DNA of 63,243 nt, counting the filler. It is 6 parts of 6 records of this genome, joined end to end, with 100 filler letters (N's around TTAATTAATTAA, not from the genome) between each part and the next. Parts side by side here need not be neighbours in the genome. Positions count along the whole stretch, not along the records: positions 37,290 to 45,601 come from SRR31156797_1973; 5 more parts are not named here. One strand, written 5' to 3'. Each line of letters opens with the position of its first letter. Position 1 is the stretch's first letter. The notes beneath the pieces are model-generated. The model saw only the letters and a list, made by a program, of their open reading frames with translations, was not told the DNA's origin and searched no databases. Of this stretch, positions 7,549-45,701 are shown in pieces. A program made the translations under genes and the position numbers.

Positions 7549-9447
7549 TTAGCGAAGTACCCATTTTCCATTTTCTTCGGGATAAATAACCTGATTGTCG
7601 GCTAGCCAGTTAAAAACATCAATCCATTGTTTTTCTGGCAACTTTAATTGTTCTTCTATTTCTTCTAATTTTCTGGGTGTTGATAAAATCTTTTTTAACT
7701 TACTTTCCAACTTATCAGCTTCCTTACCCTGAATACCTTTTTTCTTTTTATCTATACATACATCACATTGACCGCACTCTTCAGTTTCTTTTTGTCCAAA
7801 ATATTGTAATAAAAAACGACTACGACAGACATGGCTATACTCACAATAATCAATAATTGCCTGTACTCTTTTTTCGTATTGCTTTTTACGATCCTTGTAC
7901 ACCATATCCGGCAATTTCATATATTTTATCTCTTCCCGAGCTTGAATATATTGTATCAGAGGTGTTTTCTTTTTGGGTAGATAATGAATGATTTTTAGGT
8001 GATCTAACTTATTTAAATACTGATAAATCAAATCAACATGAACATTTGCTCTTCTGGCTAATTCCTGCTCGTTCACCACCACATATTCGGTAAAAAAGCC
8101 GGTGTACGATCGCAACAAAAGCTTGATGAAATTATTAAACTGCTCATTCCGAACCTGAAAATTATAAAGTTCCATGTTGTTAGCCAGAAAATGCACACGA
8201 GATGGAATATTTGACTCTTCGCTATATTCAATATACTCAGCTCGCTGTAAAATTTTCAGACTATTAAAAACAGTAAGCATATTAAATTTATAAGATCTGC
8301 AAAATTGAACCATATCAAAGTCGTATACCATTTCTTCTCCATGTCCTGATGCCAACTGAAAGAAATTACCCAATGCGTTATAAACCCTAAATATTTCTTT
8401 CTTTTCAGGAAATGAAACGGTCACATTTCTTTTTAAACGGGTTTTGTCGGCATTCTCCCATAACATTACGGCATATGCTTTCTTTCCATCTCGACCCGCT
8501 CGACCCGCCTCCTGAAAATAGGCCTCTATAGAATCCGGAGCGTCCATATGTACAACCAAACGTACATCAGGCTTATCTATCCCCATTCCAAAAGCATTAG
8601 TACATACCATTACCTGAACCTGATCATTCATCCATTCGCGTTGCCGCATATCCTTTGACTCATGTGTTAAGCCGGCATGATAATAATGACTCTTAATCCC
8701 ATTCTCATTCAACCAGGCCGCATACTCTTTGGTCTTTTTACGGTTTCGAACAAAAACCACCGTACAGCCATTTATAGAACTGATTATTTTAACCAGTTGA
8801 TTTAATTTATTATCCGTTTGGCGAACGATATAAGCCAGATTATTTCTCTCAAAACTCTTTTGAATTACATTTTTCTTTGCAAAAAGTAAACGATCCTGAA
8901 TGTCATCAACTGTTTGAGGAGTTGCTGTTGCGGTTAAAGCTAATACTGGCGCTTCCGGAATTTCTTTTCGCAGTTCAGCAATTTTTAGGTAAGATGGTCT
9001 GAAATCGTAGCCCCACTGACTAATACAGTGCGCTTCATCCACTACGATCATGCTCACATTAAACTGCACCAGTTTTTCTAAAAACAATGGCGATGATAAA
9101 CGCTCTGGCGAGAGATATAAAAACTTATAATCACCTAAAATACAATTGTCGTAGGCAATATTGATTTCTTCGCGGGTAAGTCCTGAATAAACAGCAACTG
9201 CTTTAATATTTTTCTTTCTCAGATTCGCAACCTGATCTTTCATCAAAGCCACTAAGGGTGTGATCACCAAGCACACGCCATCCATAGCTAAGGCAGGCAC
9301 TTGAAATGTAATTGACTTTCCACCTCCGGTAGGCATCAAACCCAACGTATCATTCCCTTCTCCTATGGAATGAACAATCTGATCCTGCATAGCTCTAAAG
9401 CCATCAAAGCCCCAATATTGCTTTAATATTTTAAGATATTTCTCCAA
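7549..9447 (-). CDS. recQ: RecQ-family ATP-dependent DNA helicase
   Basis: PTGGGKS, DEAHCISQWGYDFRP, TATAT, QEAGRAGRDG, Zn-binding CRS..CGQCDVC. Confidence 0.93.
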   Translation of the reverse strand: MEKYLKILKQYWGFDGFRAMQDQIVHSIGEGNDTLGLMPTGGGKSITFQVPALAMDGVCLVITPLVALMKDQVANLRKKNIKAVAVYSGLTREEINIAYDNCILGDYKFLYLSPERLSSPLFLEKLVQFNVSMIVVDEAHCISQWGYDFRPSYLKIAELRKEIPEAPVLALTATATPQTVDDIQDRLLFAKKNVIQKSFERNNLAYIVRQTDNKLNQLVKIISSINGCTVVFVRNRKKTKEYAAWLNENGIKSHYYHAGLTHESKDMRQREWMNDQVQVMVCTNAFGMGIDKPDVRLVVHMDAPDSIEAYFQEAGRAGRDGKKAYAVMLWENADKTRLKRNVTVSFPEKKEIFRVYNALGNFFQLASGHGEEMVYDFDMVQFCRSYKFNMLTVFNSLKILQRAEYIEYSEESNIPSRVHFLANNMELYNFQVRNEQFNNFIKLLLRSYTGFFTEYVVVNEQELARRANVHVDLIYQYLNKLDHLKIIHYLPKKKTPLIQYIQAREEIKYMKLPDMVYKDRKKQYEKRVQAIIDYCEYSHVCRSRFLLQYFGQKETEECGQCDVCIDKKKKGIQGKEADKLESKLKKILSTPRKLEEIEEQLKLPEKQWIDVFNWLADNQVIYPEENGKWVLR

Positions 9448-37289: not shown

Positions 37290-37357
37290 TGCCCGGGTAA
37301 ATATAGAATTTACCCCTACTTTTTATATTTTGACAAAATTTACGTACATCATTAGAA

Positions 37358-38002: not shown

Positions 38003-39151
38003 ATGATGATACCGTATCTAGGAAATCAATATCTAAAACTTAATTATGCAAAAAAAATTAGTAAAAAGGAACGAGTTTATTTAAATTTTCTGCTTAATGA
38101 ATTTATAAATCTAAAAGGTGATCTAATAATAAACGAGAAAAAAGTAGAAGAAAATTTTACTATTCAATTAGAAGATTTTTTTGATGTACTTACCAACATT
38201 TCACAAAAGCGTTGTAGTTATGAAATTTATCAAAATGATACTATTTTTCTTCAAGGTTACTTTTATCTGATTAATAATATTGAACTGTCTGCAAAAGATA
38301 TCAAAATTCAATTTAACAGTATTTTATATGAAGCTTTAAATCCTGATACGATATATTACAAATCCGGATTATTAACTATGTTAAAATTTCAAAATAACAG
38401 TGTTTTAACACTATATAATTATTTCTCAAAATTTATTTATGATAACATTGGCGAATTTGAGATTAAACTTCAAGCTCTAAAAGATATATTAGATGTTGAG
38501 GCAAGATACTCTAGGTTTTATGATTTTGAACGTTATGTATTGCGAAACCTTATAGCTGAAATAAATGAAAATAGTGATTTCCAGTTTACTTATGAAAAAA
38601 TCAAAAGCGGAGAATCTAAAAACAGCAAAGTTTTAAATTTAAAATTCAATTATAAAAATATCAAAGAAGTTGAACTGAATAATAATATTAATCTTATCTT
38701 TAATGAGATAAAAAACAGTATCAATAATTTTGAAAAAATACGTACATTACTTTATGAATACTTGAATAAAAACAATTTAGACTATGTTCAAAATAATATT
38801 TTGTTTATACAAAAACATTTTGATTCAGATTATGATAATATATTGGAAGATGCTCTGAAATATGATTATAATAATAATTATTTTGATAAATTTCTCGAAA
38901 GTGAGACTAAGAATAATTATAAATTAGTTTCTGAACTTCAAGCAAAATTTTCAAATTTATTTGAATTTGAAACAGCTCTATATAAAGAGTTAAAAAATAT
39001 CGGATTCTATTATGAAATGGATTTCCTAAAGAAACTTTATGAATTCAGAAAATCTAATATTCTCGAATATGAAAATCACGAGATTAAAATTATAGGCGAG
39101 TTCAAAATTAAAGACTTAAGCCAAATTCAAATATATAAAACTTATAAATAA
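38003..39151 (+). CDS. Rep_3/RepB-type initiator-like winged-helix protein with C-terminal extension
   Basis: LKDIL....YSRFYDFERYVL..LIAEINENSD..FTYEKIKSG.....V..LKF, typical of the second WH domain of Rep_3 initiators. Confidence 0.75.
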   Translation: MMIPYLGNQYLKLNYAKKISKKERVYLNFLLNEFINLKGDLIINEKKVEENFTIQLEDFFDVLTNISQKRCSYEIYQNDTIFLQGYFYLINNIELSAKDIKIQFNSILYEALNPDTIYYKSGLLTMLKFQNNSVLTLYNYFSKFIYDNIGEFEIKLQALKDILDVEARYSRFYDFERYVLRNLIAEINENSDFQFTYEKIKSGESKNSKVLNLKFNYKNIKEVELNNNINLIFNEIKNSINNFEKIRTLLYEYLNKNNLDYVQNNILFIQKHFDSDYDNILEDALKYDYNNNYFDKFLESETKNNYKLVSELQAKFSNLFEFETALYKELKNIGFYYEMDFLKKLYEFRKSNILEYENHEIKIIGEFKIKDLSQIQIYKTYK

Positions 39152-40382: not shown

Positions 40383-42284
40383 TTATTTAGTTTTTTTCAA
40401 TGAAGATAAAATACCATACATTGCATTTATTTGGTTCGTATTGACAACCAGTGAAACATCTGTATGTGAGTCATATGTTTTAAAATAAAGTTTAGAGTTT
40501 TCACTATTTGTTTTAAAATTATATGGAGGAGTAATTTGATTAAAGTTATCTATTGCAAAGGAATCAAAATCTAAATTATTGATTATATCATTTGGGTAGG
40601 ATATAGTTATTTTGAATCCATTATCAAAATAACTTGAAGGACAATACCCATGACTAAAATGATAATTTTCTTTTTTTGAACTTTTAAATTTTTCTAAAAC
40701 ATCATAATCAAATTCGTCTGAAACTATTTTAGTTTCAATAGTAATAAAATCCCCAGAATTTATGTTAGCATTAAATTTAAACTCAAATTCTCTAAACAAA
40801 CCTAAGGATTGGATAGAGAGATCATTGACTTTAGTATTTTTATCATTTTTTAAACAATCAATTCTAATGTCGTTGATTGAGCAACGATAATGACCAGAAA
40901 AATGATTAATAAAATTATTGTAGGGAATACTAATTTTTTCATTGATCGAAATATTTATCATTGAAATATATTTAGTTTCTTCTATTATGGTCCAGTAATA
41001 TTTTTCATTTTGACTTTTATTTAAAGTTGCGTGAAATGAATGAGTTATAGGTTTAAAAATAATTTGAGAAACCTTCGGTTCTTTTTTTTCAAATTGAAAT
41101 AACTCTACAAGTTTTAATTTATCAAAATTATAAAACCCGATACTACTCCAATTCTTTGAATCATTAATTTGGTCAAAAAAGTTTTTACTTGAAATAATAT
41201 CATTTACATCTGCTAATTTCAGTATTTTAGGACAATTAATGAGATAATCTCCAACGACTTCAAGGCTTGTCCCAGTTTCAATATATGAAATACTGCTATA
41301 GTCAATTGCTAATTTTAAATTTAAATTATGACTATTTTTTCTGCTTATTAGTTTAATGATTAAAGTATGCAATTTATCATAATTAAAATCTTTATCAAAC
41401 ATAAAGATGATGATGTTTCCCACTATTTTTAATATTTTTCCTTGATTATTTATTATGTCTGAAATTATAACTGGACTAAGTTCCTCAATAAATTCAAAAG
41501 AATTTGAATTATCATTCTTTTGAATTTCTAAAAATGCTACAACAGCTTTTTTTTCTAAATTATTATCATCATTAGGTGTATTAAAATGTAAATTATCCTT
41601 TTTTAGCATATATCCAATATTTTTTTTACTTATGAGTAAAGTTTGTAAAATATCAATTTTCTTTTTTAATCTATAAATGTAATTATCTAATTTTCTTTTC
41701 CCGCTATTATCAAAATAATCTTCATTCCAGAGAAGATTATATGCTTGTTTTCTCGAAAATGTTCTACCTTGTTTTTCGAGAAAAAAACATAAAACATCGT
41801 ATTCTTTTGGTTTTAAATCAACTAGTTTATTATTGAAATAGACGAGGTGTTCTTTCTGATTTACATGAATTCCATTATATAATAAGGTTTCATTTTGATG
41901 TTCACGTTGATGTTTTTCTTCGATTTTTTTTAATTTTAGAATCAACTCATTATCTTCAATAGGTTTTCTTATAAAATCACTGCAATTAATAGAATAAGCT
42001 GTTTCAGCTTCATTATCATTATATTTATCCCCCAAAATAATTAAATTCTCCGGTTGTGAATAAATATGTGGGTTCGTAGAAATTTTTTTCATAATTTTGA
42101 GAGCTAAATTCTCAAAATCTTTATTACAGTCGATAATAGCTAATTCGATATTATCTTGTACTAAAGCAATTAAAGCTTCTTCTAAATCGATAGCTGAGTA
42201 AACAATACATTTTTCTTCAAAATTTTCCCTAATAAAATTGTTAAACTTCGGATTTTCTGAGATTGTTAATATTCTCATATTCAT
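40383..42284 (-). CDS. Atypical OmpR-family response regulator fused to a degenerate class III nucleotide cyclase domain and an unknown C-terminal domain
   Basis: Receiver (IIDCN, FIRKP); winged helix (LKPKEYDVL..F...GRTFSR, LDNYIYRLKKKI, NIGY); cyclase-like segments GKILKIVGN, LKLAID, VVGDYL. Confidence 0.75.
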   Translation of the reverse strand: MNMRILTISENPKFNNFIRENFEEKCIVYSAIDLEEALIALVQDNIELAIIDCNKDFENLALKIMKKISTNPHIYSQPENLIILGDKYNDNEAETAYSINCSDFIRKPIEDNELILKLKKIEEKHQREHQNETLLYNGIHVNQKEHLVYFNNKLVDLKPKEYDVLCFFLEKQGRTFSRKQAYNLLWNEDYFDNSGKRKLDNYIYRLKKKIDILQTLLISKKNIGYMLKKDNLHFNTPNDDNNLEKKAVVAFLEIQKNDNSNSFEFIEELSPVIISDIINNQGKILKIVGNIIIFMFDKDFNYDKLHTLIIKLISRKNSHNLNLKLAIDYSSISYIETGTSLEVVGDYLINCPKILKLADVNDIISSKNFFDQINDSKNWSSIGFYNFDKLKLVELFQFEKKEPKVSQIIFKPITHSFHATLNKSQNEKYYWTIIEETKYISMINISINEKISIPYNNFINHFSGHYRCSINDIRIDCLKNDKNTKVNDLSIQSLGLFREFEFKFNANINSGDFITIETKIVSDEFDYDVLEKFKSSKKENYHFSHGYCPSSYFDNGFKITISYPNDIINNLDFDSFAIDNFNQITPPYNFKTNSENSKLYFKTYDSHTDVSLVVNTNQINAMYGILSSLKKTK

Positions 42285-42664: not shown

Positions 42665-42685
42665 AAAGAAAATTTGGAGGTTTTT

Positions 42686-43876
42686 ATGAAAAAAAGGCAA
42701 CTTTTAACACTAATTACGGTGTTACTAATATTATTGACAGGGTGCTCGTCGGCAGAGAGAAAGAAAAATCAAGGAAAAGGAAAAGAAATAGTAATGAGTA
42801 GAACTAAAGCTAAACCAAATTGGATTGGTACACCACTTTCTGCTAATAAAGATTATAATGGTTATATTTTAGCTATGGGGGTAGCTGAAAGTGTTGAAGA
42901 ATACAATATTCAAATGATAAGAAAAGAAGCACTGGTAAATGCAAGAGAAGAGTTAAGTAATTATATAGGAGTAGATGTTAAAGGTGAAATTGTAATAAAT
43001 CAAGAAAAACAGCAAGTTAATAAATCTTTGAACTATTCTAAAGAAGTTAGGACAAAGCAAATACAAACAACAAAAAACTATATAGAAAATTCTAAACCTG
43101 TAGATAATTATTTTGAAAAAGTAAATGTTTATCAAGGAAAAAATGTAACAGCAACAAAATATAGATATTATGTATTAGTTGCAATGCCTAAAAATCCGCT
43201 TTATATTCCTGAAATTACAAAAAATAAATATTCTGAAAGTAATAATACTTTAATAGAGAGAAAAGAAGCTCCAAAAGAAGTTGATGATTACATGGAGGAA
43301 GTTAATAGAAAAGGTTTCTTTATAGGAGTTAACGGTGGTTTAAGTCCATATGTAATTAGTGATTTTACAACTGATACTACAGGAATTTTAATGGAACAAG
43401 GCAACATAGACACAGGGTACGAGCTTAATGTGGAAATAGGAAGAGAAGTTATTAATACAAGTTACTATGTATTAGGTGGACTTTATGATTCAGAACCAAT
43501 AAGCATGTATAAATTAGGGGCAGGGATAGCTAAAAAAATATTTACATTCAAGAATTTTGATTTAAAAACATTTGCAAATGGTAACATGATATTTGTAAGT
43601 GGTGATGTAGGGAAATTATATAGAGATTTAAACATTGGTTCTAAAAATGATGTTGTAAGTATAGAAGGAATTATGTTTGGATTAACACCGGGTGTTAAAT
43701 TAGAAATGAAATTGACGGACAACTTTGATATTTATGGAATGGCACAATATGATATTTATGCTGATAGTGAGTTATATACGAATGTAAGCGGGGCAGAAGT
43801 GAGCTTAAATAACTTTGATCCTATTGTTGATTTATCAGGATTGACTTTAAAAGCAGGGTTACAGTTTAATTTCTAA
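42686..43876 (+). CDS. Lipoprotein: LPP20-like N-domain fused to an outer-membrane beta-barrel
   Basis: GGAGG RBS and ATG 42686; lipobox LTGC; KPNWI..G......A...AR.ELS; amphipathic strands ending AGLQFNF. Confidence 0.7.
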   Translation: MKKRQLLTLITVLLILLTGCSSAERKKNQGKGKEIVMSRTKAKPNWIGTPLSANKDYNGYILAMGVAESVEEYNIQMIRKEALVNAREELSNYIGVDVKGEIVINQEKQQVNKSLNYSKEVRTKQIQTTKNYIENSKPVDNYFEKVNVYQGKNVTATKYRYYVLVAMPKNPLYIPEITKNKYSESNNTLIERKEAPKEVDDYMEEVNRKGFFIGVNGGLSPYVISDFTTDTTGILMEQGNIDTGYELNVEIGREVINTSYYVLGGLYDSEPISMYKLGAGIAKKIFTFKNFDLKTFANGNMIFVSGDVGKLYRDLNIGSKNDVVSIEGIMFGLTPGVKLEMKLTDNFDIYGMAQYDIYADSELYTNVSGAEVSLNNFDPIVDLSGLTLKAGLQFNF

Positions 43877-43912
43877 ATAAAATAATAATTTAAGATATAA
43901 GGAGTGTAAGAA

Positions 43913-45373
43913 ATGAAAAAAAGAAACAAATTAAGTTTAGTGTCATTATTGGTATCAATATTAAGTTTAGTATTAATGGTAGGATGTGGTTCTGGTGGAG
44001 GTGGAGGCGGAGGTACACCGACAGTTGTAAGAGTTGTAACAAGTGTAACACTATCTGCAGAATCAATATCTATAAAACCTGGTGATAGTACTGCTTTAGT
44101 CTTAGGTGTTTTAGATAATAATAATGCTGCATGGTCAGAAAAATTAAGTACAGTAGTATGTAAATATAAAAAATCAACTTCAGATACATGGTTAACAATG
44201 ACGGGAACAAATTTTACAGCTCCTGCTGAAATTACAGGAGAAACAGAAATTTATCAAATGTTTGCAGAAGTAGATGGAGTGCAAAGTTCGGTAGTACAAA
44301 TAACAGTAACAAAAACATTAAGTAGAGAGGATACTTTAGCGACTTTAATAATTGATCAAGTAAGTGTAGCATTAGTTGATGGTACTTACGAGTATACGTC
44401 TCAAGAGCTAGAACCTGATATGGTTGATGTTAAAATATCAGCTACATTAACTGATGCAAAATATGGAAAAATATCAACAGATTTAACTAAAAACTTTGAT
44501 ATTTCTACTGTAAATTCAGGAGAGTCAAAAAAAATTACTATAATTGTAAATTCTGAATATCAACAAAATAATCCAACAGAAGCACCTAGAACATATACAA
44601 TTACATTAAAGAAAAGAGCATATGAAACAAAAACTACTATAAAAAACATCTCTTATCTTAATAGAGAAGGGATAGATGCAATAACAGAAGGAATAATAAC
44701 TGGAAATGAAGTAACTATAGGAAATGTAAATGATGATCTTGAACTAAAAGTAACATTAGAAGAAGAAGCAAAGCGTGCAAAAATATCAGCATACAGAGTG
44801 GCTGGTACTGGAGATGTAGAAGTTTTAAAATCGACAAATGCTAATAAGACTACTGTAGATAATAAAGAAGTTTACTCAAAAGAAATAACATTTGATGGAG
44901 ATGCTTTTGCAGTAGGAGTTCCAACGGATGTTAAAATAGTAATAACTTCAGAAGATGGTAATAAAACAACTACATATGTAATAGAAGTTACTAAAAGTTC
45001 TAAAAATGCAAACTTAAAAACTTTTGTTTTAAAATCAGCAGGTTCAGCAGATATAAATTTATTGTCATTAGGAGATGGTCCATATAATCAAATAGTAGAA
45101 GGAAATGATACTGTTACTATTGAATATGCAAAAGATGCAACAGACGCAGTAGTGACTGCAACTGCAACAACTACAGGAAGTAGTTTCAATTCAACTACAG
45201 ATTCAACTACAGGTTTAACTACAGGTGTTTTCACATTAGTAGAAGGTTCAAATATTTTAGAGATAAAAGTTAGTGTTGCAGGAATGAATAAAGTATATAC
45301 TTTAACTGTCACAAAATCACCTGCAAAAGCAGTATGGGATCAGTTTAACTGGGACGAAGCAGTTTGGCAATAA
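43913..45373 (+). CDS. Surface lipoprotein with Ig/cadherin-like beta-sandwich repeats and a C-terminal triple-Trp motif
   Basis: AAGGAG RBS; lipobox MVGC plus Gly7 linker; repeats ending TYTITL.K / SEDG..TTTYVIEVTK / KVYTLTVTK; terminus WDQFNWDEAVWQ. Confidence 0.8.
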   Translation: MKKRNKLSLVSLLVSILSLVLMVGCGSGGGGGGGTPTVVRVVTSVTLSAESISIKPGDSTALVLGVLDNNNAAWSEKLSTVVCKYKKSTSDTWLTMTGTNFTAPAEITGETEIYQMFAEVDGVQSSVVQITVTKTLSREDTLATLIIDQVSVALVDGTYEYTSQELEPDMVDVKISATLTDAKYGKISTDLTKNFDISTVNSGESKKITIIVNSEYQQNNPTEAPRTYTITLKKRAYETKTTIKNISYLNREGIDAITEGIITGNEVTIGNVNDDLELKVTLEEEAKRAKISAYRVAGTGDVEVLKSTNANKTTVDNKEVYSKEITFDGDAFAVGVPTDVKIVITSEDGNKTTTYVIEVTKSSKNANLKTFVLKSAGSADINLLSLGDGPYNQIVEGNDTVTIEYAKDATDAVVTATATTTGSSFNSTTDSTTGLTTGVFTLVEGSNILEIKVSVAGMNKVYTLTVTKSPAKAVWDQFNWDEAVWQ

Positions 45374-45400
45374 AAAAACTAGAACTTATATGAAATAAAT

Positions 45401-45432
45401 TGAAAATAGGCAAAATTTCTTGCCTATTTTCA
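45401..45432 (+). terminator. Intergenic stem-loop (terminator or mRNA stabiliser)
   Basis: 13-bp stem TGAAAATAGGCAA / TTGCCTATTTTCA. Confidence 0.65.
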
Positions 45433-45457
45433 TAATTAAATCTAAGGAGCAAATAAA

Positions 45458-45601
45458 ATGAAAAAATTAATCATATTAATGTCAATATTAAGTGCAACAT
45501 CATTTGCGGATACCAAAGGTAATTTAATAAAATTTTCAGCAAATACACCTGCTAAAGCGACAGAGGTAAATGAAAACTTTGATGATTTAGCAGATGCAAT
45601 A
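45458..45601 (+). CDS. Secreted protein, 5' fragment, with fibre-like N-terminal motif (truncated by contig end)
   Basis: AAGGAG RBS; signal peptide ending SFA; mature DTKGNLIKFSANTPAKATEVNENFDDLADAI. Confidence 0.75.
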
Positions 45602-45701
45602 NNNNNNNNNNNNNNNNNNNNNNNNNNNNNNNNNNNNNNNNNNNNTTAATTAATTAANNNNNNNNNNNNNNNNNNNNNNNNNNNNNNNNNNNNNNNNNNN
45701 N
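45602..45701. other. Artificial contig linker
   Basis: 44 N + TTAATTAATTAA + 44 N. Confidence 0.99.

Follow-up and report, generated by a model that had tools for sequence, protein, structure and literature searches.

Do two neighbouring genes at the end of a short contig encode a membrane-anchored lipoprotein and an exported partner that docks on its tip? This question is raised by a window of 63,243 nucleotides (the whole stretch of DNA that was analysed, made of six contigs joined by N spacers, with a GC content from 0.27 to 0.48), in which a lipoprotein gene at 43913–45373 is followed by an open reading frame (ORF) starting at 45458. An initial annotation, made from the letters alone, had noted that the lipoprotein ends in three regularly spaced tryptophans and that the mature chain of the next protein begins like a phage tail fibre, and had proposed that the cell may have co-opted a phage fibre-docking module. 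Comparative genomics and one controlled fold prediction support that proposal, and we consider it likely that the pair is a phage-derived docking cassette, in which a trimer is tethered to the lipoprotein by the Trp-triad peptide.

The Trp-triad lipoprotein and its downstream partner in cellular genomes

The lipoprotein gene (43913–45373, plus strand) is an ORF of 486 amino acids that carries the proposed docking tail, or "socket". Its signal peptide (43913–43987), as read from the sequence, contains the lipobox MVGC, which makes Cys25 (codon 43985–43987) the presumably lipidated first residue of the mature protein. A Gly/Ser linker, GSGGGGGGG (43988–44014), directly follows this cysteine, and the protein closes with the C-terminal tail AVWDQFNWDEAVWQ (45329–45370), the proposed docking peptide, and then the stop codon. 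The protein is otherwise poor in tryptophan, as had been claimed: five residues are present (74, 93, 475, 480 and 485), three of them in the triad within the last 12 positions. A Trp-triad tail carrier is defined here by a C-terminal W-x4-W-x4-W, lying 0–2 residues from the stop, with Asp, Asn or Gly after Trp; with its triad spaced five apart, the window lipoprotein fits this definition. When a hidden Markov model (HMM) of the tail, built from other loci only, was run on the 889 six-frame ORFs of the window, ORF 43913 was the sole match (E 2.5e-7).

The ORF from 45458 reads MKKLIILMSILSATSFADTKGNLIKFSANTPAKATEVNENFDDLADAI and runs into the N spacer at 45602, leaving 48 codons. It comprises a signal peptide MKKLIILMSILSATSFA (45458–45508, plus strand), whose cleavage after Ala17 was inferred by alignment, the Ala that precedes the mature chain being invariant in the 71-member alignment A2. 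The next 31 residues, up to the contig end, are the N-terminal docking module or "plug" (45509–45601, plus strand). This N-module is defined by a cleavable leader, the motif F-x2-G/N-T-x-A-x-A-x-E/D-V-N-x-N-F and a heptad helix, of which 8 residues precede the contig end in the window. The N-module HMM, likewise built from other loci only, found ORF 45458 as its sole match among the same 889 ORFs (E 6.5e-11), and every other window ORF gave E >2 with both models. These motifs exceed what chance would give, and the observation made in the initial annotation, a lipoprotein ending in a Trp triad and a neighbour with a signal peptide and the N-terminal motif, is confirmed.

A scan of one genome per species with lipoprotein peptides returned two loci, in which the match was confined to the last 15–17 residues. 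Each match is the C-terminal AVWDQFNWDEANWQ of a lipoprotein whose body is unrelated, with Flg_new_2 at one locus and TSP_3-like repeats at the other; at both, the next gene encoded a protein of 230–233 amino acids with a leader and the same N-terminal motif. A profile of the latter matched 160 proteins at E≤0.01. Among the matches listed, the names were "hypothetical", plus one "Lipoprotein" (Alcanivorax borkumensis); a precomputed Pfam domain was present in 2 of the 120 listed out of these 160 (PF13648 and PF04102) and in none of the others listed.

The initial annotation had suggested looking for co-occurrence of the two motifs in adjacent genes, and this was found in three samples, the loci being fetched using the downstream protein alone. 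At 25 of 34 metagenome loci, many of which are close relatives, a Trp-triad-tailed ORF was located directly upstream, on the same strand and 30–50 nt away, with the tail consensus A-V-W-x-x-F-x-W-x-x-A-x-W-Q-stop. The other nine comprised one locus without upstream DNA, two with nothing and six with a second layout, in which two or three tandem N-module paralogues stand beside a secreted protein of about 200 amino acids that carries the Trp triad (e.g. VWGEGNWGDNW) at its N-terminus, directly after the leader. Similarly, in 400 genomes from the class of one carrier, the profile matched 24 genomes, mostly over its first ~60 positions and in proteins of 190–667 amino acids; a tailed ORF was directly upstream at 27 of the 30 loci returned, on the other strand at one more and absent at two. 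The class-sample tail ORFs were mostly tiny, consisting of a leader, a lipobox, a Gly/Ser run, W-D-x-M-x-W-D-x-x-x-W and one or two further residues. Their mature length is 25–40 residues, and many of these small lipoprotein genes measure only 56–110 codons from one stop to the next; annotation can easily overlook them. In the third sample, taken at the level of the phylum with an HMM of the N-module alone, the module was present in 23 of 401 genomes, and the tail was directly upstream at 10 of 20 loci, 1.3 kb away at one and in the N-terminal-triad layout at one. About 6% of the sampled Pseudomonadota genomes carry the N-module. None of 401 genomes searched from the phylum of G001, the nearest of the genomes compared, carries it, and the DNA of the window pair is absent from G001 itself, which is probably not the organism that the contig comes from.

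In addition, when plasmids were searched by tblastn with the 48 residues from the window, two hits of low significance were obtained (E 0.04 and 0.6), and both turned out to be the cassette. They lie on plasmids of the cultured Thermaceae Allomeiothermus silvanus DSM 9946 and Meiothermus taiwanensis WR-220. On each plasmid, an annotated 43-amino-acid hypothetical protein is a lipoprotein ending in the Trp triad, and the N-module protein follows after 10–20 nt; in A. silvanus, this protein bears the annotation "tail fiber domain-containing protein" and contains Peptidase_S74. Taken with the samples above, these plasmids extend the range of the cassette to Deinococcota, beside Pseudomonadota and the AT-rich organism represented in the window. 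Judged by sequence and gene order, the pair is a conserved two-gene cassette.

Complete N-termini were available for 50 non-redundant ORFs that bear the tail, and 49 of them have a lipobox (46 by pattern and 3 more by eye). For 37 of those 46, Gly or Ser fills six or more of the 12 positions that follow the Cys. As far as these N-termini indicate, the upstream partner is nearly always a lipoprotein. In an alignment of 19 tails (A3), the A, the V, the three W and the Q were invariant. Similarly, 34 aligned N-modules had an invariant F, two A and N, and the consensus T-F-x-x-G-T-P-A-x-A-x-E-V-N-x-N-F, covering the first ~20 mature residues, led into the heptad helix. The constant parts are thus the lipobox with its Gly/Ser run, the Trp-triad tail and the N-module, the downstream partners having about 45 N-terminal residues in common. 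What lies between or beyond them varies. Carriers have no body at all, or Flg_new_2, TSP_3, He_PIG, Big_9, Calx-beta or cadherin-like bodies; partners have an eight-stranded barrel, FGE-sulfatase, Collagen with Kelch, Peptidase_S74 or long coiled coils. Searches for the motifs, the accessions and the concept in the literature yielded no publication, and no Pfam or NCBIfam model covering the tail or the N-module was found; on this basis, neither module appears to have been described, as the initial annotation had supposed of the pair.

Some loci deserve a separate mention. The N-module is joined to a Collagen repeat and a Kelch propeller in L075 (1396–2757), to an FGE-sulfatase domain in L044 (694–1704), and to Peptidase_S74 with Gly-rich repeats in L090 (3483–4787). 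The tandem-paralogue layout was seen in L016 (6004–10664), L023 (319–5559), L036 (544–2365) and L077; two second-layout loci also hold a membrane protein of ~820 amino acids with a Sulfatase domain. L017 contains a second cassette (7665–7898 and 7974–8780), 1.2 kb downstream of the first, whose carrier is a 77-amino-acid open frame without start or lipobox, possibly a broken gene. A covariation of tail subtype with helix subtype, judged by eye, was dropped on account of the exceptions L039, L071 and L075.

The phage counterpart and the predicted complex

Viral sequences were searched with a DNA pattern for A-x-A-x-E-V-N-[AG]-N-F, which matched at least 120 viral stretches. By our own arithmetic, the chance probability of the pattern is ~3e-11 per position, and only a few chance matches are expected. 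In all 80 viral loci read, the motif was in frame and phage proteins began with the module, at 12–17 residues after the Met and without a leader in 78 of them; the likeness to phage proteins noted in the initial annotation was thus confirmed at the N-terminus. The cellular N-module HMM matched 79 of these 80 loci, in part by construction, the loci having been found by a 10-residue pattern. Residues outside that pattern agree with the cellular module as well: F at −6 in 78 of 79, I-P-N-T, and G-T.

Furthermore, 57 of the 80 viral loci hold an ORF of 496–581 amino acids that carries a Trp triad (e.g. WGSGLWGENW or WDEDNWDEAIW) and abuts the start of the motif gene; three others lack upstream room and one has its triad ORF elsewhere. 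L094 (1365–2999) and 56 other viral loci (in the range L092–L171) have this arrangement, a triad ORF of ~540 amino acids with the N-module gene directly after, and many of the N-module proteins encoded there are only 75–102 amino acids long. One annotated relative of the viral triad ORF was found, a "phage stabilization protein" (27% identity, E 1e-26). It is encoded in a podovirus structural block, after the portal, the capsid and a 231-amino-acid protein, and the next gene starts with the motif. No relative of the phage triad protein was present in the PDB. The barrel-family profile found no viral locus, the strict cellular-tail DNA pattern gave a single match in viral contigs, which was not at an ORF end, and the first 50 kb of Salmonella phage 7-11 contained no matching N-terminus and no terminal Trp triad. 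The window lipoprotein had no hit in PHROGs, and homology to the phage hub protein was not found. Judging from the sequences, the viral gene pair appears to represent a code for the assembly of podophage tails that has not been described.

The initial annotation had also proposed folding three copies of the N-terminus together with the tail. This was done with three copies of the partner of locus L001 (residues 24–233) and the last 40 residues of its lipoprotein. All three runs gave an interaction prediction score from aligned errors (ipSAE) of 0.66, whereas the best of three controls scored 0.00; a mark of 0.66 is reached by 51 of 78 solved complexes and by 2 of 108 mismatched pairs. Contact agreement between runs was at least 95%, and the predicted local distance difference test (pLDDT) of the partner was at least 67. 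In the predicted interface, tail residues 25–40 face residues 32–40 and 43 of all three copies. Among the lowest-error pairs listed, W29 is predicted to touch copies 2 and 3, W34 copies 1 and 2, and W39 copies 1 and 3. The residues predicted to be in contact are those that do not vary in either module. On the tail side, the whole predicted interface is made by the L001 residues that correspond to AVWDQFNWDEAVWQ, and the window fragment retains all residues aligned to the predicted contact residues 32–40 and 43 of P0002. No PDB structure holding the N-terminal half of the N-module was found, so that the result is unlikely to be the recall of a known complex.

That N-module proteins may be trimeric is suggested indirectly, through relatives, by their domains, by the likeness of the helix to a trimeric coiled coil and by the symmetric three-copy interface of the model. 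Relatives contain a Collagen repeat or the S74 chaperone domain, the partner has weak PHROG hits to fibritin and to a tail needle, and at some loci one Trp-triad protein has two or three tandem paralogues of the partner for neighbours. Weak profile matches (best E 4.2e-5) link the helix (alignment A4, positions 24–47) to HR1, the trimeric coiled coil in the spikes of coronaviruses, which most likely reflects a common coiled-coil type, by convergence of Asn-rich trimeric heptads, and not kinship.

Several points have to be set against a docking cassette of phage ancestry. The evidence for binding is all computational. The fold job differs from its calibration, combining three copies with a peptide where peptides were untested, alignments were not used, and the pair folded was that of L001 and not that of the window, whose partner is cut by the contig end. 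Eight of the 20 phylum-sample loci have no Trp-triad neighbour, and 19 of the 80 viral loci, all with upstream room, show no Trp-triad ORF. The phage triad lies ~49 residues before the C-terminus and not at it, and no phage ORF is recovered at E≤1e-3 with the HMM of the cellular tail; the link between the phage and cellular sockets therefore rests on the triad pattern and on gene order. The assignment of the phage triad protein as a putative tail hub depends on the annotation of one depositor and on the gene order of P22. In addition, tblastn of two N-modules against 50,697 GenBank phage records returned nothing, and no PHROG covers the N-module motif. Finally, the complete relatives closest to the window pair consist of a helix and an eight-stranded barrel and are not long fibres. 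Not all partners are fibres.

The barrel relatives were examined by structure prediction and structure search. The AlphaFold2 model of one of them (pLDDT 84) shows the leader, an extended segment, a helix at residues 40–68 and the barrel. Foldseek with the barrel partner found only eight-stranded barrels of low TM (0.1–0.37) and no fibre fold, and Atlas searches gave leads only, at 0.75–0.81. A reading of the partner as an outer-membrane barrel was rejected on inspection of its aligned C-termini, which are varied and have no terminal aromatic residue.

Proposed mechanism and alternative explanations

The loci described above show the two motifs, how well they are conserved, the order of their genes in cellular and in phage DNA, and the signals for export. 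The mechanism that we propose for them is as follows. Gene 1 would encode a protein whose lipidated Cys is followed by a Gly/Ser linker, by an optional body (cadherin-like in the window) and, at the C-terminus, by the invariant three-Trp peptide. The product of gene 2 would be exported by Sec and, after cleavage of its leader, its first ~20 residues would lead into the heptad helix. Three copies of it would assemble round one Trp-triad peptide, each Trp occupying one of the three grooves between neighbouring copies, so that direct binding would have a 3:1 stoichiometry. In this way, the trimer and whatever head it bears would be tethered to the membrane-anchored lipoprotein. The module would derive from a podophage tail interface, in which the triad protein has the position of the hub and the motif gene lies directly downstream; we infer that the transfer went from phage to cell.

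Could the same observations arise if the two proteins were functionally linked and did not bind each other, their termini serving as tags for a shared export, sorting or processing machine encoded elsewhere? Both motifs do lie at the termini of exported proteins, and the N-module also stands without a Trp-triad neighbour at some cellular and viral loci. A common third gene was not found at distant loci with long flanks; the genome-sample loci span only ~3 kb, and a distant third gene would escape notice there. However, the predicted fold confidently places the tail among three N-modules, with controls at 0.00, and the phage pair is found in a virion structural block, where assembly partners are expected. 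A shared machine is on balance unlikely. The residues between the tryptophans, mostly Asp, Asn, Gln and Glu, are relevant to a different proposal, namely that the tail is an interfacial peptide binding the membrane, lipopolysaccharide or the cell wall, with the neighbour merely acting in the same process. Trp-rich segments are often found at membrane interfaces, and a short peptide on a flexible Gly linker would suit such a role, but the composition is unlike that of interfacial peptides, and it would be left unexplained why cells and phages alike pair the triad so closely with one particular N-terminal module. We regard this proposal as quite improbable.

It may also be asked whether the cassette is only the remnant of a decaying prophage tail, without a role in the cell. 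The N-module is common to phage proteins, and the window contig and both Thermaceae examples look plasmid-borne. On the other hand, the 80 phage copies lack the Sec leader and the lipobox that the cellular ones have gained. The cellular copies are also intact and fused to non-phage heads such as FGE-sulfatase and Kelch, and no phage structural genes were seen in the flanks examined. A prophage remnant is accordingly very improbable, and the docking cassette of phage ancestry is the reading that we retain.

A wider proposal can be made tentatively, and our judgement on it is nearly balanced with a slight lean towards doubt: bacteria of at least three phyla may have domesticated a podophage hub-to-fibre plug-and-socket as a general display system, in which a lipid-anchored 14-residue peptide captures any matching Sec-exported trimer and the same code operates in phage tails. 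If this were true, one type of socket could hold interchangeable heads (lectin-like, collagen-Kelch, beta-helix or barrel) on the envelope. If the 3:1 binding holds, the 14-residue peptide and the ~20-residue plug would also make a compact and portable docking tag for attaching trimers. The cassette would then offer, for a widespread group of proteins, a concrete and testable answer to how exported trimeric fibres that lack a membrane barrel are fastened to the bacterial cell.

The contig of the window pair and comparison with known systems

The window is probably a mixed bin. The pair lies on the contig at 37290–45601 (8.3 kb, GC 0.27), and the DNA to its right is unrelated. The body of the lipoprotein (44015–45328, plus strand) probably consists of four divergent cadherin-like beta-sandwich modules, each putative module being closed by a Y-x-I/L-x-V/L-T/K-K pattern, at residues 128, 228, 355 and 462. 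The claim of Ig- or cadherin-like repeats made in the initial annotation is thus upheld in part. Among 1.84 billion representatives, the single phmmer match of the lipoprotein (P0001, E 1.2e-6) is built of nine PF12733 (Cadherin-like) domains, so that the cadherin support is transitive. PF12733 itself aligned to the body with E 0.28 and 12.1 bits, below the gathering cut-off of 24.2; the body had no significant match in Pfam or NCBIfam, and pairwise tests for internal repeats in the 486 residues gave no significance. For the body, the Atlas gave a lead at 0.81, and the single-sequence AlphaFold2 model of the lipoprotein had too low a confidence for use (pLDDT 35). No homologue came out of word-indexed searches, whether the query was the lipoprotein or the 48-residue downstream fragment, and neither megablast of the contig nor tblastn of the lipoprotein gave a match against plasmids.

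Between the two genes, the 84-nt intergenic spacer contains a hairpin with a 14-bp stem (45401–45432, called on the minus strand), which is the only terminator-like site within 43700–45601. At the other side of the downstream fragment, the source-run contig and the window contig terminate at the same base. The last 30 nt (45572–45601, encoding ENFDDLADAI) had a summed word depth of 297 versus 37.5 elsewhere, depth being distinct from copy number, and two further unitigs of the source run share these 30 nt, one of them with a different preceding sequence. This suggests that the source sample holds several genes (paralogues) with the same plug, which would account for the contig break at 45601. 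The remainder of the downstream gene is on no other contig of the window. A search of sequencing runs found this stretch only in its probable source run, and no RNA run was listed.

The other genes of the contig can be described briefly. A 382-amino-acid protein (38003–39151, plus strand) has a Rep3_C initiator domain (E 4.6e-12), and its best plasmid match is a replication initiation protein of Cetobacterium somerae (31% identity over 51%); no clear iterons were seen upstream of its gene. This is a weak indication that the window cassette may be plasmid-borne in a Fusobacteriota-like host. A 400-amino-acid lipoprotein (42674–43876, plus strand), with a weak LPP20 match (E 0.00096, below the cut-off) and a beta-rich C-terminal half, is encoded by a gene ending 36 nt before that of the Trp-triad lipoprotein and was not seen beside the cassette elsewhere. 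On the minus strand, 40383–42284 encodes a protein of 633 amino acids in which a DNA-binding domain of OmpR type was recognised (E 5.3e-13); its receiver match is only weak, and ~400 C-terminal residues have no domain match. In agreement with the claim that phage genes are lacking nearby, none was seen among the contig ORFs scanned, PHROGs having been run on the two genes of the pair only.

The closest parallel to the cassette is the attachment of fibres, spikes and needles in podophages. In P22, the hub gp10 is associated with the needle gp26 and the spike gp9; in T7, gp11 and gp12 are associated with the fibre gp17; and branched receptor-binding proteins are known in the Klebsiella phages KP32, K11 and KP34. 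As in these systems, the N-terminal module of a trimer would dock on a tail protein encoded upstream, the bodies being interchangeable, and the viral contigs carry the same motif and Trp triad in that gene order. The cellular copies differ by their Sec leader and lipobox and by a socket reduced to a terminal peptide; moreover, no sequence match at the motif was found in GenBank phage records or PHROGs, and no solved structure.

Small outer-membrane lipoproteins combined with an envelope coiled coil are also known from Lpp and from the spanins Rz/Rz1. Phage spanins pair a coiled-coil protein with a tiny lipoprotein that attaches to its end and is encoded next to it. Lpp is a lipidated coiled coil in itself; Rz is anchored in the membrane and Rz1 is rich in Pro, and no Trp triad is known at the termini of these proteins. 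In contrast, the cassette partner has a cleavable leader and is predicted to dock by its N-terminus. Trimeric autotransporter adhesins (type Vc) share with the cassette an envelope-anchored, trimeric coiled-coil stalk with varied heads. They are held by their own C-terminal beta-barrel, whereas the anchored end of the cassette partner would be its N-terminus, held by a separate lipoprotein; no YadA-type anchor was present in the complete partners scanned with Pfam.

The MAT (mosaic adhesive trimer) fibres of Bdellovibrio bacteriovorus are Sec-exported, phage-like and trimeric, with a conserved N-terminal part and swappable tips, and some of the fibres end in an S74 chaperone domain (PMC10769870). 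The article leaves their cell-side anchor open and says that the domain at the N-terminus "would presumably tightly bind" an element of the surface yet to be found (PMC10769870). One relative of the cassette likewise ends in Peptidase_S74. By description the two differ, the article giving MATs a beta-rich N-terminal domain of about 130 amino acids (PMC10769870), whereas the cassette module, in the model of a relative, is predicted to be ~20 extended residues and a helix and not a beta-rich domain.

Finally, the cassette resembles the cohesin-dockerin system in being a modular plug-and-socket that would fasten varied proteins to an anchored scaffold. Cohesin and dockerin have unrelated folds and bind 1:1 by domain; here, a 14-residue peptide is predicted to lie on the axis of a trimer.

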